Of a stretch of 64,000 nucleotides of DNA, positions 5,141 to 14,883 are shown one piece after another. The position numbers were made by a program, and so were the translations under genes. Below the pieces are notes generated by a model that was not told the origin of the DNA, made no database searches, and worked only from the letters and a program-made list of their open reading frames with translations. Every line of letters starts with the position of its first letter. Position 1 is the first letter of the stretch. The DNA is from an uncultured Actinomycetota bacterium (GTDB taxonomy: Bacteria; Actinomycetota; Actinomycetes; Mycobacteriales; Mycobacteriaceae): assembly GCA_963715215.1 (NCBI GenBank), contig CAVQRJ010000020.1, positions 352,343-416,342 of the forward strand, read 5' to 3'.

Positions 5141-6312
5141 TCAGCCTAGCGCCACGCCATCGCCGATGGTCTTGGCGACACCAGCTGGCTGAGGCAGCGC
5201 GAGCCTGCGCACAGCAATCAATCTGGTGATATCGCTCGCGGTGACGATGCCGACAACCCGGCCCGAGTCGACCACGAGGGCGCGCTTCTCGGCGGCACGT
5301 GCCAGGCGCTCCAGCAGCCCGAGGAACGGCTCGTGCGGCTCCGCCGTCGCCACTTCGTCGCGCGGTATGGCCGCGTCACGAATCAGGGTGGTGGCGCGCT
5401 GATCTGGTGCGACGTCACGCAGCTCGGCCAGCGTGATCAGTCCAGTGATCACCCCGTCGGAGTTCTGGACCGGGTACGACGAGTGGCGGTCGCCCAGCAG
5501 ATAGCGCTGGATGAACTCCTCGACGGAGATCGAGCCGGGAGCGGTATGCGGATCAGCCGTCATCACCTCGGCGACAGACACGCCCGCGAGGGACTGCCGG
5601 GTTAGTATCCACGCCTCTTCGTCGCGAGCGGCGGTGAGCAGGAACCAGCCGATGAACGCCATCCACACACCACCGACCAGTGAGCCCGCCAGGAACTCGA
5701 ACAGCCCCACCCCGATCAACACGTATGCGACCACACGTCCGGCGCGCGCCGCGCCAACGGCAGCGCGGACCGCATCACCGTGTCGGCGCCAGAGGTAGGC
5801 GCGAAGTATCCGGCCCCCGTCCAACGGCGCACCGGGCAGCAGGTTGAACAGCCCGAGTATCAAGTTGATTCCTGCCAGCCACCAAGCGACGGCGACCACG
5901 ATGTTCGTCATGCCGACCACACGCAAACCCGCCGCGGCGCCCGCGAATACCGCCGCTGGTGCGAGGCTCACGGCCGGACCAGATGCAGCGATCCAGAATG
6001 CGGTTCGAGGGGTCTTCGCCTCGCCGCCGAGGCGCGCGATACCCCCGAACAACCACAACTTACGCCCACGACCTCGATGCCCGCGCGGCGGGCGACGATC
6101 GCATGCGTCAGCTCGTGAGCCAGCAGCGAGGCGAGTAGCACCGCGGCGCCACAGGCTCCAGCCAGCCAGTAGGCGCTCGTCGCGTGGCCCGGTGCGGCGT
6201 CAGGCAGCGTGGCGGCCAGGCTCCACGTGAACAACCACAAGATGACCAGCACGCTCCAGTGCACGGTCAGCGGGAACCCGGCCACCCTCCCGAGCGGAAT
6301 ACCCTCGTCCAT
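5141..6312 (-). pseudogene. Site-2 (M50) zinc metalloprotease with CBS domains, Rv2625c/Rip3-like; 1-bp frameshift near 6060
   Basis: HELTH (HExxH), [11 protein letters not shown] and C-terminal CBS pair; frames join at GV(T)LWLFGG. Confidence 0.85.
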
Positions 6313-6350
6313 GTGCTACCTCCAATTTCCTGCCGGACAGAAGCTTCGTG

Positions 6351-6440
6351 TTAGTGCTGGCGGGCAACGATCACCGGAACGCGGGCCGCCTGCGCCACGG
6401 CGGTGCTGACCGAACCGAGCAGCATGCCGGCGACGCCGCA
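6351..6440 (-). pseudogene. C-terminal remnant of a universal stress protein
   Basis: GMLLGSVSTAVAQAARVPVIVARQH* is the USP C-terminal signature. Confidence 0.75.
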
Positions 6441-6506: not shown

Positions 6507-6538
6507 TAGGGCCGATAGTCCCTACCCTCCGGGGGTAT
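6507..6538. promoter_or_regulatory. Composite site: DosR-like box overlapping a RicR-like TACCC-N5-GGGTA box
   Basis: TAGGGCCGATAGTCCC-TACCC-TCCGG-GGGTAT. Confidence 0.6.
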
Positions 6539-6559
6539 GTGTGCGGCATCATCCGAAAC

Positions 6560-6928
6560 ATGACGGAAGCACCTGAATCCAGGGCCGAACCGACCACCGT
6601 GACTGGGCAACCCCGCTACGACAACCGATATGACCGGCCGAATCGGCTGAGTCAAGTCTTGGCGTGGGTGGGCATCATCGCCGGTGTCCTGTTCGTCGTC
6701 GCGGTGATCTTCTTCTCGGGGTTCTTCTTGGGCTGGTCCTCAGGCGGCCACCATGGCTGGCACCGGGACTACGACGGCGACCGTGACGGCTGCTACAGCG
6801 GCCAGATGGGACCGGGCGGAATGATGGGACCCGGAGGAATGATGGGACCCGGCCAAATCTGGCCGGGCGGACCGATGGGCCCGAGTCAGTCGCCAACCAC
6901 GACGGCACCCAGCACGCCGCGCCCATAG
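6560..6928 (+). CDS. Single-pass membrane protein with His/Met-rich GPGGMM repeats
   Basis: One TM segment, then GGHHGWH and tandem 18-bp repeats encoding GPGGMM. Confidence 0.7.
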   Translation: MTEAPESRAEPTTVTGQPRYDNRYDRPNRLSQVLAWVGIIAGVLFVVAVIFFSGFFLGWSSGGHHGWHRDYDGDRDGCYSGQMGPGGMMGPGGMMGPGQIWPGGPMGPSQSPTTTAPSTPRP

Positions 6929-6936
6929 GCCAGCGG

Positions 6937-7455
6937 GTGACTCAAAACGGCTTCAACGCCGTTGAAAGGGCGTTGCGCCATCAGACGTTCGGCACCCTGT
7001 CGACGCTGTCAGAGCAGGGTCGCCCGCATGCGACTGGCGTGGTCTACGCGGTGTCCCCGAAGGGCGAGCCCCTAATCCTCTACGTCACTACGAGGACGAC
7101 TACCCGCAAGGTGCGAAACGTTCGGGCGCACCCCGACGTTGCGTTCGTAGTTCCGGTCCCCCGCCGCTTCATTCCGGGATTCCCGCCTCGCGCCGTTCAG
7201 TTTCAAGGCACTGCGACGGTAGTCCCAGGCGACCATAGGCGGGCGCTCTGCGCCTTTGCTTCGTCATGGTTCCTACGCAGGATTCTGGTAGCGGAGCAAC
7301 GCATCGTGACTCAGGGCGGCGACCTGTGTTTCATATGCATACGCCCTGACCCCACGGTGTTCACGTATGGGATTGGAATGTCGCTCTGGCATAACGTGCG
7401 ACAGCCGCGAGACGCCATAGGTCGGGTGAAGATTCGTGACGATGGCTTGTCATAG
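6937..7455 (+). CDS. Pyridoxamine 5'-phosphate oxidase-like (split-barrel flavin/F420-binding) protein
   Basis: GTLSTLSEQGRPH...VVY, TRKVRNVRAHPDVAF. Confidence 0.75.
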   Translation: MTQNGFNAVERALRHQTFGTLSTLSEQGRPHATGVVYAVSPKGEPLILYVTTRTTTRKVRNVRAHPDVAFVVPVPRRFIPGFPPRAVQFQGTATVVPGDHRRALCAFASSWFLRRILVAEQRIVTQGGDLCFICIRPDPTVFTYGIGMSLWHNVRQPRDAIGRVKIRDDGLS

Positions 7456-7756
7456 GGCCGTCTTCCTTGAGCCCCGAAAATAGGGACAGGCTCATGGAGA
7501 GAAGCACGGGATGAAAGGAACGACAACCGGTTTGGCTTCCCGCAAGCCCCGGTGAGGGCCCAGCTATTCCGGCTGATTCCGGGTCATAGACGGTGAATAA
7601 ACGGCAACCGAAACACGACGGCGAGCCGCTCGGCGATCGCACGTCCTATGCGGCCAGACGCGCAGGTGACCAAGGCCGACGCACCATCGATACGGACGGA
7701 CTCGGTTGACATATAACGATGCCTCAAATCACCGCTTGTCGTGGGCCCGATGGTGG

Positions 7757-7890
7757 CTACAGCGAGGCGAGGATGCTTTGCATGGTGTCGATCTCCTGCT
7801 GCTGGCTGGTGACGATCGAGTGCGCCAGTGCAATCGCCGCGGGATATTGACCTGACGTGATTTCGTTCTGGGCCATCGTGATTGCGCCCT
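7757..7890 (-). pseudogene. C-terminal fragment of a DUF305 (ferritin-like, copper-associated) protein
   Basis: QGAITMAQNEITSGQYPAAIALAHSIVTSQQQEIDTM. Confidence 0.7.
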
Positions 7891-8838
7891 GCCGCCGATC
7901 TCGGCCAATGCGTCGACGGTGGGTTTGATGATCGGCTCGAATGCAGGACCGCTGAGGTGGAAGCCGCCGACGACCGCGGCCACGGTCTCGATGCCGGTGA
8001 GCCTTCGCGCATAACGGACGATGTTGACAATCCCGGCGTGCCCGCACCCGGTCAGCACGATCAGACCGTGACCGGCGACGTGGACGATGAGGGCCTGGTC
8101 GTCGAGGATCAACGGGTCGGGCGCCCAGGTCCCGTCGGTCAGCGCCTCGTGAAACGGCATGCCATGCTCGAAGTCACTGGTGCGATCTACCTCGCCGGTG
8201 ATCAGTACCGAATCGTCAAACAGCAACGATGGCTGGCGGCGTTCGATGACTTCAAGGCCGGCCTGCTGCAGCGCTTTGCGGCTGGGTGAGGGAAGTTCGA
8301 GCTCGAACAGTCCCGGAATCGCGATGCGGCGCTTGGTGAATGCTCCGGGGTGCACGACCAGGGGCAGATTGGACGGGCCGACGGCGCGGACGAATCCGTC
8401 CAGGCCAGTCACGTGGTCGGAGTGCCCGTGACTGAGCACGATCAGCTCAATGTCGAACGGGGACAACCCGAGTCGGCGCATGTTGTCAGACAGACCATCG
8501 GGGGTCATTCCCGCGTCGAACAGCAGGTGGTGGTCGTGGCCGTCGCGGGTGACGGTAACCAGCATGGAAAACCCGTGCTCGGCCAGGGGGATATCGTAGG
8601 TTTCGCCGGTATCGAGCACATTGGTCGCCAGCCGCGACGCGGCGGTGGCCGCGAGCAGACCGTGCCGGTGCACTGGACCCTGATCCGCCAGCAACAGGTC
8701 GGTGCTGTTGTCGACTAGCGTGGTGAGAGTGACCGCGTCGACCGGGACCAGGGTTACCGGATCGGCCGGCGCGACCGCGGATTCGGGTCGTATCGCCCAA
8801 GCCGCCACCGCTGCAGGATGATCAGGTTCGGTGCACAT
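7891..8838 (-). pseudogene. MBL-fold metallo-hydrolase, 3'-truncated and joined to the DUF305 fragment
   Basis: AEHGFS, LFDAG, LSHGHSDHVTG, LTGCGHAG and GGFHL motifs; AGGAGG SD; ends abruptly after ALAEIG. Confidence 0.8.
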
Positions 8839-8960
8839 TGCTGACCTCCTCGCCGGGATTTGCGGCATGACAGTAACGGCTCGCGTCTATGGGGGCGAGA
8901 GTCTTAATTCCCTTTTGGGCACGCAACGTCGTGTTGGCGCATCGCTTGTAGCATGGCCTG

Positions 8961-10320
8961 ATGGCCGGGCCCTGGAGTCTGGACAAACTGGCCGCGGTAT
9001 CCGGTGAGACCGAGGGTCGTCTTCGTCGGTACGTCGACATGGGCCTGTTGCATCGGCAAGCGAATGGAGAATTCGAACCCGATTCTTTGCATCGGTTGCG
9101 GCTGATCCAGTTCGCCCAGACCCGCGGTGTCAGCGACGATCAGCTAGCGGCGGTGACCGCCAGCCAAGGCGATTTGCTTGGAATTTTCAACGAGTTGCAT
9201 GCGTCCACTGATGCCGCCACCGATCTCGCTGCTGCCGCCCGTGAGCTTGGTGTCGATGACGATGTGATGGCCGAACTTGCCGAAATCCTCGGCTGGGACG
9301 ACGTCGGAACCGGCACCGAGGCAGACGTTGCCGCGCTGCATGTGACGGCAAAAGCCCTCGCATTGGGCATGCCTCGCGACGCGCTGATGCAGATGGTGCG
9401 GGTGTTCACCGATGTCATGGATCGGCTGGCCGATGCGGAGGTGCGCACCTTCCACGACTACGTCCACGAGCGCTTCCGCGCCGAAGGACTCACAGGTCCG
9501 CAGTTGCTGGAGACAACGCAGTCCGTCGGGAAACCCGTGCTGGAGCTGGTCGAGCCGGCGCTGCTGTATTTCCACCGACGGGCCTATCAGCGTGCCAACC
9601 GCGAAGATCTGTTGCGCCATCTTGCCGAGGAGACCCACCCGCCTTCGGCGACACCGGGTGAGGAGCAAGTGACGGTTCTGTTCGTCGATTTGGCCAGCTT
9701 TACGGCGCTGACCGCGACGATGGGTGATCACATGGCGGTCGATGTTCTGGGCAGGTTCAGTGCGACGGTGCGAGCCAGCACAGGCCGGTGTGGGGGCAGG
9801 ATCGTCAAGCAGATCGGCGACGCGTTCATGCTGATGTTTAACCGGCCGGCCGATGCGATCGAATTCGGGTTGGAGATGGATCGTTTCGTCCAAGCCGAGT
9901 CCCAGTTCCCTGCCCTGCACATCGGTGCACACCATGGCACTGTCCTCTACCGTGAGGGTGACTATGTCGGCGCCACAGTGAATTTGGCCGCCCGAGTGGC
10001 ATCGGCCGGTGCCGCAGGGAAGTTCCTGATCACCGCAGATCTGCGCGATGCGGTCGGGGATGTCGCTCGACGCCGACTTTGTGTCATTGCCGCCGCAGCG
10101 GCTCAAGGGAATTCGCGATCCAATCTGTCTGATCGAGGTGCGCCGCCGCGGCCCGGAACGCTCGAATCGGCCTGTCGACCCGGTGTGCGGTCTGCTCCTG
10201 GGCCCGGGCGACGTGGCAACTCAGGCCACCTGGAATGGAATCACGTTCGCCTTCTGCTGCGAGCTATGCAGGACGGCTTTCACCGAAGATCCCGCCCGAT
10301 TCGTCAGCTCACATAGTTGA
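8961..10320 (+). CDS. Class III adenylyl cyclase with N-terminal MerR-like HTH and C-terminal YHS/TRASH domain (1-bp frameshift near 10065)
   Basis: VLFVDLASFT, KQIGDAFM and DYVGATVNLAAR; DPVCG...FAFCCELCRTAF in the adjoining frame. Confidence 0.85.
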
Positions 10321-11812
10321 GGCTCGTCATCATCCCAGCTTCTTGGTGATACGCGTTGTGGCAGTGCAGCATCCAGATGCCAGGGTTGTCGGCGACGAGG
10401 ACGGCGCGGGCTTGTCGCATCGGCAACACGATGGCCGTGTCTTTGCGCGCGCCGAGGCTTCCATCAGGCCTGATCATCTGGAATGTGTGCCCGTGCAGGT
10501 GTATTGGATGCCACATCATCGACATGTTGTTGAACGTCAACGTCGCCCGCTGCCCGGCGATGATAGTGAGCGGTTGGTTATCGGGATAGGGGCGCCCGTT
10601 GATTGTCCAGTTGTAGTTCATCATTCCGCCGGAGAGCACGGCCGAGAGGCTGGCGTCAGGTTTGGCCGATCCCAGGGTCACTTGCGGTGTGGCGGTGAAC
10701 ATGTCGACGGTGCCGACACGCTTGGTGAGTTCGGCGGGCTGGAATGCGGCACCGGGCGGGTTGCCGGCGCCAGTGGATAGCAGTGCCCGGGCAACCGCGT
10801 TCTTGCCCTCGGCCAGCGCCACTAGCGGAAACACGCCGTCGCCGGCGGTGACGATGACGTCGTAGCGCTCCCCCATCCCGAGCAGCACCGCATCGACCTC
10901 GGTGGGCACGATCGGGTACCCGTCGGTGTGGGTGACGGTCATCGAATGCCCGGCCATTGCGACCCGGAATGCCGTGTCGGAGCCTGCGTTGATGATCCGT
11001 ATCCGAATGCGCTGGCCGGGCTTGGCGCTGAACGTGCTTGGCGCTGCAGGGATGCGCCCGTTGATCAGGTAGTACGGGTAGTTGACATCTCCGGCGTCCC
11101 CGCCCAGCAGCTCGCTGCGCCCGACCCCACTCATGCCCGACATGCCGCCCATCCCGGGCATGCCGCCCATGCCGTGCTGATCATGCAGGTCGTCGTAGAT
11201 CTCGTGAGGTGTCTTGCCGATGCCGTCGGTCCAGTCGTCGAGCATGACGATCCATTCGGCATCGTAGGTGCCGGCCTCGGTCGGATCGTCCACGATCACC
11301 GGCAGATACAGCCCGTAGTCGGTGTCAAGGCCGGTGTGCGGGTGGGCCCAGTAGGTGCCCGGATGAGCGAGGGAGAACCGGTAGGTGAAGTCGGCGCCGG
11401 CGCCGATGTTCGCGCTGGCGGGTTCGGCGCCGTCCATGTCGTTGCGGATCGCCACGCCGTGCCAATGCACCGAGGTGGGGTGATCGAGCCGGTTGGCGAC
11501 CGTGACGGCGAGCTCGTCGCCGACATTGGCCCTAATCAGCGGCCCGGGAATCGTGTTGCCGTAGGCCAACGTTCGGGCCAGCGTGCCTCCCAGGTCGATG
11601 GTGGTCGGCTGTGGCGTCAATGTGGTGGTGACGGTTCGCCCGGTATGGGGCCGCGCCGCTTCGGCGGTGGAGACAGCAGAAGAATTAGGCCCTACCGCGA
11701 TGCTAGGACGGCTTGGGCGGCCGCAGCCGGCTAGCGCGACCCCACCGGCGATGGCGGCCGCCACGAACGCACGTCGGCTCAGAAAACCGCGTTCCAAGCG
11801 CGACTCCATCAC
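10304..11812 (-). CDS. mmcO: Multicopper oxidase, Tat-exported lipoprotein (MmcO-like)
   Basis: SRRAF Tat motif, LAGC lipobox; HWHG, WAHPH, HPIHLHGH and HCHNAYHQEAGM copper motifs. Confidence 0.92.
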   Translation of the reverse strand: MMESRLERGFLSRRAFVAAAIAGGVALAGCGRPSRPSIAVGPNSSAVSTAEAARPHTGRTVTTTLTPQPTTIDLGGTLARTLAYGNTIPGPLIRANVGDELAVTVANRLDHPTSVHWHGVAIRNDMDGAEPASANIGAGADFTYRFSLAHPGTYWAHPHTGLDTDYGLYLPVIVDDPTEAGTYDAEWIVMLDDWTDGIGKTPHEIYDDLHDQHGMGGMPGMGGMSGMSGVGRSELLGGDAGDVNYPYYLINGRIPAAPSTFSAKPGQRIRIRIINAGSDTAFRVAMAGHSMTVTHTDGYPIVPTEVDAVLLGMGERYDVIVTAGDGVFPLVALAEGKNAVARALLSTGAGNPPGAAFQPAELTKRVGTVDMFTATPQVTLGSAKPDASLSAVLSGGMMNYNWTINGRPYPDNQPLTIIAGQRATLTFNNMSMMWHPIHLHGHTFQMIRPDGSLGARKDTAIVLPMRQARAVLVADNPGIWMLHCHNAYHQEAGMMTSLNYVS

Positions 11813-11870
11813 AACGAGATGCTTAGTCCGTTCGGGACTATTGGGCTAGAGACCTCTTTCCCCGCGAGCG

Positions 11871-11900
11871 GTGACTTAAGTCCCTACCCCCCGGGGGTAT
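11871..11900. promoter_or_regulatory. Composite site: DosR-like box abutting a RicR-like TACCC-N5-GGGTA box
   Basis: GTGACTTAAGTCCC-TACCC-CCCGG-GGGTAT in the divergent mco / copper ATPase promoter. Confidence 0.7.
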
Positions 11901-11967
11901 CATACAGGCATGGTGGACGCGACATCGAGTGGCTTGCGCTGCGGCTGCGGAAGAGGTGAGCACCGTG

Positions 11968-12326: not shown

Positions 12327-14883
12327 ATGGTGTCCAGCGTTGACGCTATCGTCGTGGTGGTCGCGGTCCTGGCGATCGCCGGGTTGGCGTGGTACTTCTT
12401 TGCCCCGCGCCGCGCCCGCGCCGCTGCGGTGAGTGGTGGGGTTCAGCGTGTCCAAGTAACGATCCGGGGTGGCTACACCCCCAGCGTCATACAGGTGCGC
12501 CAGGGCATTCCGGTGGAGATCGAGTTCGACCGGCAAGAAACCGGCGACTGCAGCTCGCGGGTGGTCTTTCCCGACCTTCACCTATCGGCGGCGCTGCCCG
12601 CGCATCAGCGCACGACTGTGCGGTTCACCCCACAGCAGGCGGGGTCGTTCTTATTTGCCTGCGGCATGAACATGATCCACGGCACACTCGTCGTCACCCC
12701 CAACGGGCAGGCCGCCCCACCCCACGAACCTGAACAGCCCGACACTGCGGCTCCTGGGTCTGGACGAGCGGATCGTGCCGCTGAGCCGGCCGCCGCCGAG
12801 GTTGAAGCCGCCCAGGCCGAAGGAGCGGCGCGCCGAGATCGCCGACCTGACCCGCCGGGTCGTGATCGGTGCGGTGCTGACCACCCCAGTGTTCTTCGCG
12901 GTGATGGCTCAGTCACTGGGCGCGCACTGGGTGCCGGCGGCATTGCTCAACCACTGGGTGCAGCTGGCGCTGATCACCCCGGTCATGTTCTACGTCGGTT
13001 GGCCAATCCATCGCACCGGCTGGCTCGCGCTAGCGCATCGCAGCGCCGACATGAACAGCCTCATCACCCTCGGCACGGTCGCCGCATACGGCTACAGCCT
13101 GCTGGTCACCGTTGCCCCCGACCTCTTCCCCGCCGACGTGCGGGAGGTCTACTTCGAAGCCGTCGGGGTGATCCTCACCCTGATCATGCTGGGCCGGCTG
13201 CTGGAAGCGCGAGCCAAGGCCGGCACCGGCGAAGCCATCCGCGCCCTACTCGGCCTGCAGGCCCGCACCGCCCGCGTCGCGCGCGACGGCGCCGAAACCG
13301 AAATCCCCATCGACGAAGTGGTCGTCGGTGACGAGATCCTGATCCGCCCGGGCGAGAAGATCCCGGTCGACGCCACCGTCCTGGCGGGTCAGTCCGCTGT
13401 GGATGAGTCCATGGTGACCGGGGAATCGATGCCTGTGACCAAACACACCGGCGACACCGTTATCGGCGCGACCGTCAACACCACTGGCTCGTTGCGGGTG
13501 CGCGCGGCCAAGGTGGGCGCGGACACCATGTTGGCCCAAATCATCCGCATGGTGCAGCAAGCGCAGGCCTCCAGAGCCCCGATCCAGCGGCTGGCCGACG
13601 CGATCTCGGCGTACTTCGTGCCGGTCGTCATCGCGATCGCCATCGCCACCTTCGCCGTCTGGTTCGTCGCCGGTCCGGCCCCGGCGCTGACCAACGCGCT
13701 GGTGTCTGCGGTGTCGGTGCTGATCATCGCCTGCCCATGCGCGCTGGGCCTGGCCACTCCGCTGTCGATCATGGTCGGCACCGGCAAGGGTGCCCGCGCG
13801 GGCATCCTGATCCGCTCGGCCGAGGCTCTGGAGACCGCGCACAAACTCGACACCATCGTGCTGGATAAGACCGGCACCATCACCGCCGGCAAACCCGCCC
13901 TCACCGACGTCGAGGTAGTAGGCGCGCTGCGCGAGGATCAGCTGCTGGTCCTGGTGGCTGCGGCCGAGGCCGACAGTGAACACCCCATCGCCACCGCGAT
14001 CGTCGCCGGAGCCCGGGACCGCGGCATCAGCATTCCCGCCGCCGAGGACTTCGCCTCGATCACCGGCAAGGGAGTACGGGCCACCGTCACCGGACACACC
14101 GTGCTCGTCGGCACCGCAACACTGTTGATCGAAAGTGGCATCGACGCAGCCGAACTGCAACAGATCAGCGAGCGGCTTGCCGCCGCGGGCAAAAGCCCGA
14201 TCCTGGCCGCCGTCGACGGCCAACCGGCCGGGGTGCTCGCCGTCGCCGACACGGTCAAAGACGACTCTGTCGCAGCGATCGCAGCGCTGCGCAAACTGGG
14301 CCTGCAGGTGGTGATGATCACCGGCGACAACGCCCGCACCGCCGCGGCGATCGCCCGCCAGGTCGGGGTCTCCCGAGTCCTCGCCGAAGTCCTTCCCGAA
14401 CATAAAGCCGGCGAGATCCGCCGCCTGCAAGCCGAAGGACGACGGGTCGGCATGGTCGGCGACGGCATCAACGACGCACCGGCCCTGGCCCAAGCCGACG
14501 TCGGCCTTGCCATCGGGACCGGCACCGACGTCGCGATCGAAGCCGCCGACATCACCCTGATCTCCGGGTCGCTGACCGGTGTGGTCACCGCCATCCGGCT
14601 CTCCCGCGCCACCATGCGCAACATCCGGCAGAACCTGTTCTTCGCCCTGATCTACAACGCCATCGGCATCCCTCTGGCCGCCGGAGTGCTCTACCCGCTG
14701 CTCGGGCTGCGACTTTCGCCGATGATCGCCGCCGCCGCAATGGCCCTGTCCTCGCTCTCTGTGGTGGGCAACGCCAACCGCCTGCGCCGCTACCGCATCG
14801 AACCGCTGCCCCCGGCCGAAACGCCCACGATCGAACCCCAGGTGGAAACCGGTGCCGCCCAACACGAACCCGTCGCGTCGTAA
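12327..14883 (+). CDS. copA: Cu(I)-translocating P1B ATPase with N-terminal cupredoxin domain (1-bp frameshift near 12825)
   Basis: FACGMNM cupredoxin; [28 protein letters not shown] and MALSS motifs. Confidence 0.92.

Follow-up and report, generated by a model that had tools for sequence, protein, structure and literature searches.

We identified a composite promoter element at two sites in a 64,000-nucleotide stretch of DNA from an uncultured member of the Mycobacteriaceae (contig CAVQRJ010000020.1, positions 352,343 to 416,342 of the forward strand; hereafter the window). At both sites a DevR/DosR-like palindrome, here called palindrome A, runs without a gap into an exact TACCC-N5-GGGTA inverted repeat of the type bound by the copper-sensing repressor RicR. 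As a cis-element the composite is genuine and conserved, keeps a fixed geometry and stands before copper genes; this arrangement suggests that the genes respond jointly to copper and to oxygen shortage. Judging from sequence, we consider it probable (roughly 60%) that the element forms a promoter cassette activated by DosR and repressed by RicR. If this is true, a dormancy regulator is wired directly to copper-defence genes in a manner that can be read from sequence. The cassette would also represent a compact natural two-input promoter of about 50 bp, and its new feature would be a RicR operator occupying the -35 region of a DevR-type promoter.

Conservation of a composite element before copper genes

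Palindrome A lies at 6509-6522 at site 1 (GGGCCGATAGTCCC; with its flanks, TAGGGCCGATAGTCCCTA) and at 11871-11884 at site 2 (GTGACTTAAGTCCC), and RicR-type boxes follow with zero gap at 6523-6537 (TACCCTCCGGGGGTA) and 11885-11899 (TACCCCCCGGGGGTA), respectively. Compared with the DosR core GGGACTWWAGTCCC, site 2 has one mismatch (13/14) and site 1 has two (12/14). The initial annotation had proposed just such a DosR-like plus RicR-like composite with identical geometry at 6507-6538 and 11871-11900, which the sequence confirms, and had reported a 13/14 match to the DosR core, which is borne out for site 2. Both boxes are exact TACCC-N5-GGGTA inverted repeats, the only two in the window, and by this motif the second half of the composite is an operator for RicR, a CsoR-family protein.

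Both components are rare in the genome as a whole (6.04 Mb, 65.8% G+C), which contains five TACCC-N5-GGGTA boxes and 11 DosR-core-like 14-mers with at most two mismatches to GGGACTWWAGTCCC. Site 2 is the best of these 14-mers and site 1 is among the other ten; annotation of the open reading frames flanking the other nine DosR-like 14-mers was uninformative. Because boxes and DosR-like 14-mers are both so few, chance adjacency in identical register is excluded: the genome counts give an estimated probability of ~1e-10 that two of five boxes would touch two of 11 DosR-like sites in the same register. Recent duplication was also rejected as the origin of the two sites, because the flanks outside the motifs are unrelated and each site sits in a separate, widely conserved promoter family.

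An exact scan for AGTCCCTACCC-N5-GGGTA, with one genome per species, returned 77 loci, about 54 of which were copies in Mycobacterium or other Actinomycetota, where AGTCCC is followed by TACCC. The remaining scattered matches were taken as chance hits and used as controls (n = 23), and M. tuberculosis had no record among the exact matches. In the actinobacterial copies the left half of the palindrome, which the scan left unconstrained, reads GGGCC, GGGAC, GGGTC or GTGAC and completes the palindrome. Several copies have perfect GGGACTTTAGTCCC cores, and those of M. szulgai, M. angelicum and M. simiae read GGGACTT(T/A)AGTCCC.

A broader search, for GGGNC-N4-GNCCC with a RicR box within 0-14 bp, found the combination in 34 of 301 genus genomes, with 34 of the 40 matches at gap 0, and the reversed pattern gave four matches in the same 301 genomes. 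A genome scan for the composite had been suggested in the initial annotation, and its outcome is that the adjacency is conserved, at fixed geometry, before copper genes. The TACCC-N5-GGGTA motif itself is enriched in 150 of 151 genus genomes, and its reversed control has almost no matches. Thus, RicR-type boxes are near-universal in the genus and are not confined to pathogens.

At least three operons that are unrelated to one another lie behind the composite. Family A, with about 30 loci, consists of homologues of P0001, the gene following site 1. Family B, which includes site 2, is the P0002-cupredoxin-ATPase operon and is found in Acidimicrobiia too, and family C encodes a proline-rich protein of ~80 amino acids (aa) that ends in CIPHANC. 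The family C proteins seen at loci L001, L027, L032, L044, L053 and L059 are secreted, are 77-84 aa long and share the C-terminal motif G-C-I-(P/S/L)-(H/G)-x-N-C; they have no family assignment and are candidate copper-binding peptides. Additionally, at three positions (G246:C109:3021-3062, G183:C2:524847-524887 and G019:C111:5433-5474) a good palindrome A (for example GGGCCATAAGACCC, GGGCCAAAAGGCCC) stands 12-13 bp upstream of the RicR box, a spacing that may represent an alternative geometry displaced by one helical turn.

Palindrome A behaves as a module distinct from the box beside it. The RicR-only boxes sampled in this genome and four others lack palindrome A; their flanks are AT-rich, and at several of them a TANNNT hexamer starts where the box ends. 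In a gene-centred sample, made up of the best P0001 homologue loci, an exact RicR box was present at 19 loci, nearly all of them with the palindrome, and six other loci with a decayed RicR box still retain a palindrome-like element. Among the decayed-box loci, L119 has CATCAT at the exact composite spacing, and L126 and L127 have GATACT one base nearer. The interpretation of palindrome A as an extended RicR operator was rejected on these grounds, as the palindrome is one-sided, has its own dyad, is absent from RicR-only boxes and outlives decay of the box. As a separate observation, RicR-only promoters at L078, L081, L086 and L091 often have two boxes, 58 bp or 31 bp apart, and lie in divergent intergenic regions.

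It is also conceivable that palindrome A is no transcription-factor site at all and instead is an UP-like element, the -35 element of an alternative sigma factor or a relic of a mobile copper cassette. The element does travel with copper-island genes across taxa, and most copies fall within a single orthologous promoter family, so that its conservation is partly by descent. However, the dyad is kept through different half-site variants in each family (GGGTCT...AGACC, GGGACT...AGTCCC and GGGCC...GGTCCC), conservation ends sharply at the left edge of the palindrome, and the motif matches boxes at the dosR locus of this genome. We therefore regard this explanation as highly improbable. A SigC-type -35 (SSSAAT) was considered within GCCAAT and dropped, as no -10 matched it at a valid spacing.

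Likeness of palindrome A to DevR/DosR and OsdR boxes

The critical bases of a DevR half-site are G3, G4, G5 and C7, with G5 and C7 the most important and the base between them less so (Chauhan et al. 2011, PMC3177182). At site 1 all four are present in both half-sites. At site 2 the right half is a perfect DevR half-site and the left half, GTGACT, lacks G4 only. The two central positions are A/T at both sites (AT at site 1, TA at site 2). Across the composites, the variation among the left halves GGGCC, GGGAC and GGGTC is confined to the position between G5 and C7, and the critical DevR bases are kept.

A second point of comparison is OsdR (SCO0204) of Streptomyces coelicolor, which binds M. 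tuberculosis DevR sites, has the consensus AGGGCCGATCGGCCCT and controls a regulon that includes universal stress protein (USP), nitroreductase and PNPOx genes (Urem et al. 2016, PMC5069765). The left half of site 1, AGGGCCGAT, is letter for letter the left half of this consensus. The likeness has limits: Streptomyces sites are not reported beside CsoR-type operators (PMC5069765), and site 1 has a right half of mycobacterial type (AGTCCC).

The genome encodes a single DosR orthologue, with 84.5% identity to M. tuberculosis DosR and an almost unchanged recognition helix, and no other response regulator of the genome exceeds 35% identity to this orthologue. At the dosR locus (L128; C16:271500-281500), a nitroreductase-USP-dosR operon is divergent from a gene for a GAF-GAF-HisKA_3 kinase, and the intergenic region holds the tandem boxes GGGTCAATGGTCCC and GGGCCATGCGTCCC, 21 bp apart. 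A second cluster, PNPOx-USP-nitroreductase, lies 3 kb away and has its own box, GGGCCTTTAGTCCA, with a weak partner 22 bp upstream. The boxes of the dosR locus are of the same sequence type as composite palindromes from other genomes (GGGTCAATAGTCCC, GGGCCAATGGTCCC). Taken by its critical bases, its position relative to the predicted -10 and its likeness to the genome's own dosR-locus boxes, palindrome A behaves like a DevR/DosR-OsdR-type box.

The distribution of DosR supports this assignment weakly: in the 151-genome sample, DosR is present in 20 of 20 composite-bearing genomes versus 128 of 151 overall (p ~0.04, uncorrected for phylogeny or genome completeness). The RicR orthologue of the genome under study is a 96-aa protein with PF02583, and its own upstream box, at C9:180790, lacks an extra palindrome. 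We also note many DosR-like boxes 6-58 kb upstream of the window (C20:294894-346143; loci L129-L131), among them three near-identical copies of GGTAGGGGC(C/T)GAAGTCCC at C20:321442, 333438 and 337154. We read this region as a DosR-regulon island or else as a repeated element beside the window.

Palindrome A might alternatively be the operator of another regulator, such as another protein of NarL/LuxR type, an unknown protein that responds to copper or redox state, or, where a species has several, a second DosR paralogue; the second input would then not be hypoxia. DosR is here a predicted binder, and single boxes are atypical for DevR. Additionally, the composite extends to Acidimicrobiia, DosR presence having been checked in genus genomes, and many genus genomes carry 2-4 DosR-like genes. 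Set against this, the present genome has one DosR orthologue with no close second among its response regulators, conservation falls exactly on the bases that DevR contacts, near-identical boxes occur at the autoregulated dosR locus, and no regulator gene consistently adjoins the composites. Cmr (Rv1675c), which binds inside mmcO in BCG, was tried as a binder and rejected, because its motif, TGTCA-N6-TGACA, does not fit. We consider a regulator other than DosR unlikely.

Promoter geometry and proposed regulatory logic

Downstream of the RicR box, at a distance of 8-9 nt, 47 of 54 actinobacterial composites have a NANNNT hexamer; these copies come from every family, and the corresponding figure for chance hits is two of 23. 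At site 1 the putative -10 is CATCAT (6547-6552, + strand) and at site 2 it is CATGGT (11909-11914, + strand), each 9 nt after the box. With the -10 so placed, the centre of palindrome A would fall at -42.5 to -44.5 and the RicR box at about -36..-22, presumably within the core promoter of these copper-homeostasis genes. If CATGGT is the -10 of site 2, its start is predicted near 11921 and its palindrome centre at ~-43.5. For comparison, proximal DevR boxes are centred at -43.5 in hspX (PMC13486717) and at -42.5 in tgs1 (PMC3177182), and the published distance from proximal Dev box to start site is 33-34 bp. By reading of the sequence, the two DosR-cluster promoters of this genome also have NANNNT, at a matching distance from the proximal box.

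The promoter families differ in what surrounds this hexamer. In family A it reads CATCNT and a conserved ATG follows after 7 nt (ATG 6560 at site 1); as this ATG is so close to the predicted -10, the P0001 mRNA is probably leaderless. At the predicted -10, the core RATGNTGGA is common to families B and C. A consensus scan found no sigma-70-type -35/-10 pair at either site; a recognisable -35 hexamer is lacking, and the putative -10 never begins with T. These features are as expected for an activator-dependent promoter.

In the mechanism that we propose, the cassette would consist of a DosR-type box (14-bp core), a RicR operator (15 bp, no gap), 8-9 nt, a weak NANNNT -10 and the start site. A phosphorylated DosR dimer at ~-43.5 would recruit polymerase from the position where it contacts sigma region 4 and alpha in M. 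tuberculosis. The RicR operator would cover the -35 region and the upstream spacer (-36..-22), where copper-free RicR would block RNA polymerase and probably the adjacent DosR half-site too. Cu(I) would release RicR, after which DosR~P (low O2, NO, CO) would be needed, or strongly helpful, for polymerase recruitment. Full expression would then take copper together with a DosR-activating signal. The outputs would be copper-defence effectors: a Met/His-rich membrane protein at site 1 and a membrane protein-cupredoxin-Cu ATPase operon at site 2.

What we infer from this arrangement is which protein binds palindrome A, where transcription starts and that the gate is of AND type. A more tentative proposal, to which we would give slightly less than even odds, is that a hard-wired 'copper AND low-oxygen/NO' cassette has moved among copper-resistance operons and between actinobacterial lineages; in that case, part of the copper defence of many environmental mycobacteria would lie within the dormancy regulon. 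Copper toxicity is higher without oxygen. Links between hypoxia and the copper response have been noted repeatedly in M. tuberculosis and M. bovis (PMC4801387, PMC9048740): one study saw the DosR regulon induced when csoR was mutated (PMC4801387) and the other a copper response specific to hypoxia (PMC9048740), with no cis-acting mechanism named in either.

Several observations weigh against a DosR-activated, RicR-repressed cassette. DevR promoters of M. tuberculosis always have at least two tandem boxes (PMC3177182), and site 1 and family A have no conserved second box. Site 2 has only a weak partner, the DevR-like 14-mer GAGACCTCTTTCCC at 11849-11862, which lies 22 bp upstream of palindrome A and lacks the C7-equivalent in its right half. 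This 14-mer is a candidate secondary box on the basis of family B conservation, a mean of 5.5 of 8 critical positions being kept at offset -22, and secondary Dev boxes are poorly conserved even in M. tuberculosis (PMC3177182). Copper genes go unmentioned in the DosR regulons published for M. tuberculosis, M. avium and M. abscessus. The relaxed core GGGNC-N4-GNCCC occurs 143 times in the genome, so the loose motif alone is unspecific, and the -10 assignment depends on NANNNT, a low-information motif that is never T-initial here. Additionally, the cassette is accompanied by a multicopper oxidase gene, which is divergent in this genome and downstream in L036; as the enzyme needs O2, strictly hypoxic expression fits poorly. 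Finally, neighbouring genes of DosR-regulon type, which stand beside site 1, are found at none of the related composite loci.

A further alternative accepts DosR as the binder and disputes the AND logic. DosR could compete with RicR, so that hypoxia alone de-represses the promoter (an OR gate or a boost), or DosR at ~-32.5 could repress through a -10 that overlaps the box. A DevR footprint of 18-20 bp would reach into the TA/TAC of the adjoining RicR box (Dev box length from PMC3177182), and a basal -10 is present without an activator. At site 2, moreover, TATCAT (11898-11903) overlaps the box and an ATG follows 6 nt later, which also counts against the cassette as we propose it; with TATCAT as the -10, the palindrome would lie at ~-32.5, a repressing position. 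However, a box-overlapping TA....T hexamer occurs in just 8 of 54 composites versus 4 of 23 controls, which is no enrichment, whereas the hexamer at +8/9 is common to all families. The ATG at 11910 is itself an unlikely start codon, because it lies within RATGNTGGA, which in family C stands well upstream of that family's own ribosome-binding site and start codon. We judge non-AND logic to be distinctly unlikely.

The proposed DosR-activated, RicR-repressed cassette combines features of known systems. It resembles the Dev box promoters of M. tuberculosis (classes I-IV, PMC3177182; DosR-TAC cryo-EM structure, PMC13486717) in its core (GGGACTWWAGTCCC, with critical G3-G5 and C7), in a proximal box at ~-43 (here by the predicted -10), in its poor -35 and in the presence of the orthologous regulator in the genome. 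It differs from them in having a single strong box instead of at least two in tandem and a metal-repressor operator in the place of the -35, and from the published DosR regulons consulted in that its targets are copper-defence genes. The RicR regulon of M. tuberculosis has promoters at ricR, lpqS, mymT, socAB, mmcO and Rv2963 (Shi et al. 2014, PMC3944814). Shared with this regulon are the TACCC-N5-GGGTA box, a RicR orthologue with an autoregulatory box, and copper genes, among them a pair in which a multicopper oxidase and a small membrane protein are divergently encoded. In contrast to the sampled RicR-only promoters, the composite has its box ~9 bp further upstream, has C and not A on the distal flank, and carries a fused second palindrome.

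Co-dependent promoters under FNR/NarL control nir and nrf in Escherichia coli. As in those promoters, an oxygen-related and a signal-specific regulator would be integrated at one core promoter; unlike in them, the second input would be a de-repressed metal sensor between activator and -10, and the protein families are others. The initial annotation knew of no description of the composite, and we likewise found none of adjacent DosR and RicR sites in the literature searched; an earlier mention in Festa 2011, Park 2003 or Gerasimova 2011 is possible.

Genes around the two sites

Site 1 is the family A promoter of P0001 (6560-6928, + strand), an open reading frame that encodes a 122-aa single-pass membrane protein. 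The protein is Met/His-rich, with HHGWH and GPGGMM repeats, and is a likely Cu(I) binder; it has zero Pfam or NCBIfam family matches. A PPOX-class (F420-type) oxidoreductase gene, recognised by family match (6937-7455, + strand), starts 9 nt after P0001 and is probably cotranscribed with it, a pairing that recurs in just three other loci. Near-identical fragments of P0001 homologues, all inside the gene, are present in sludge and soil metatranscriptome contigs (L110:1526-1941), which makes environmental transcription of this gene family probable. No RNA runs contained the window sequence itself; its matches were to soil metagenome DNA only, the genome being a soil metagenome-assembled genome.

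On the other side of site 1 are the last 27 codons of a USP gene (6354-6437, - strand), cut off just left of the site and 85% identical to the C-terminus of the USP at L128:2224-3126, which sits in the dosR cluster of the genome. A peptidase M50 plus CBS gene (Rv2625c-like; 5141-6312, - strand) comes next, with its open reading frame split over two frames (5141-6058 and 5968-6312). The initial annotation had taken USP and M50-CBS genes of DosR-regulon type beside the element as support for integration of hypoxia and copper. Their adjacency holds, but the USP is a 27-residue remnant, M50-CBS is frame-split and the context is not conserved. The integration reading thus retains its conserved cis-element, with a DosR-like half and a RicR operator half, and loses its argument from neighbouring genes. 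The USP truncation falls exactly at the start of the composite/P0001 cassette, with the split M50-CBS gene adjoining, and 5141-6437 looks like an eroded DosR-type cluster overrun by a copper island.

Site 2 precedes P0002 (11965-12306, + strand), an open reading frame for a small membrane protein with zero family matches and the first gene of the family B operon. It is followed by genes for a cupredoxin-like protein (12327-12800, + strand; family match) and a copper-translocating P1B-type ATPase (12775-14883, + strand; TIGR01511, 616 bits). The multicopper oxidase gene (MmcO/CopA-like; 10304-11812, - strand; family match) is divergent from site 2, an arrangement not seen at the other family B loci. 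About 12 nt upstream of its start codon, at 11824-11840, lies a perfect inverted repeat, TAGTCC-GTTCG-GGACTA, which has the CC-N5-GG geometry of the RicR box and DosR-like half-sites in reversed orientation. This repeat, which other family B loci do not conserve, could be an mRNA hairpin or another operator.

The 5' stretch of the P0002 operon (11922-11965) is conserved across family B loci as GCGCTGCGG(N)AGCGGAAGAGGT. The frame opened by the ATG at 11910 would yield a Cys-containing peptide, M-x-D...LRCG(S/C)G. We judge this ATG to be part of the -10 hexamer; alternatively, the conserved stretch may encode a short leader peptide or form a 5'-untranslated-region structure.

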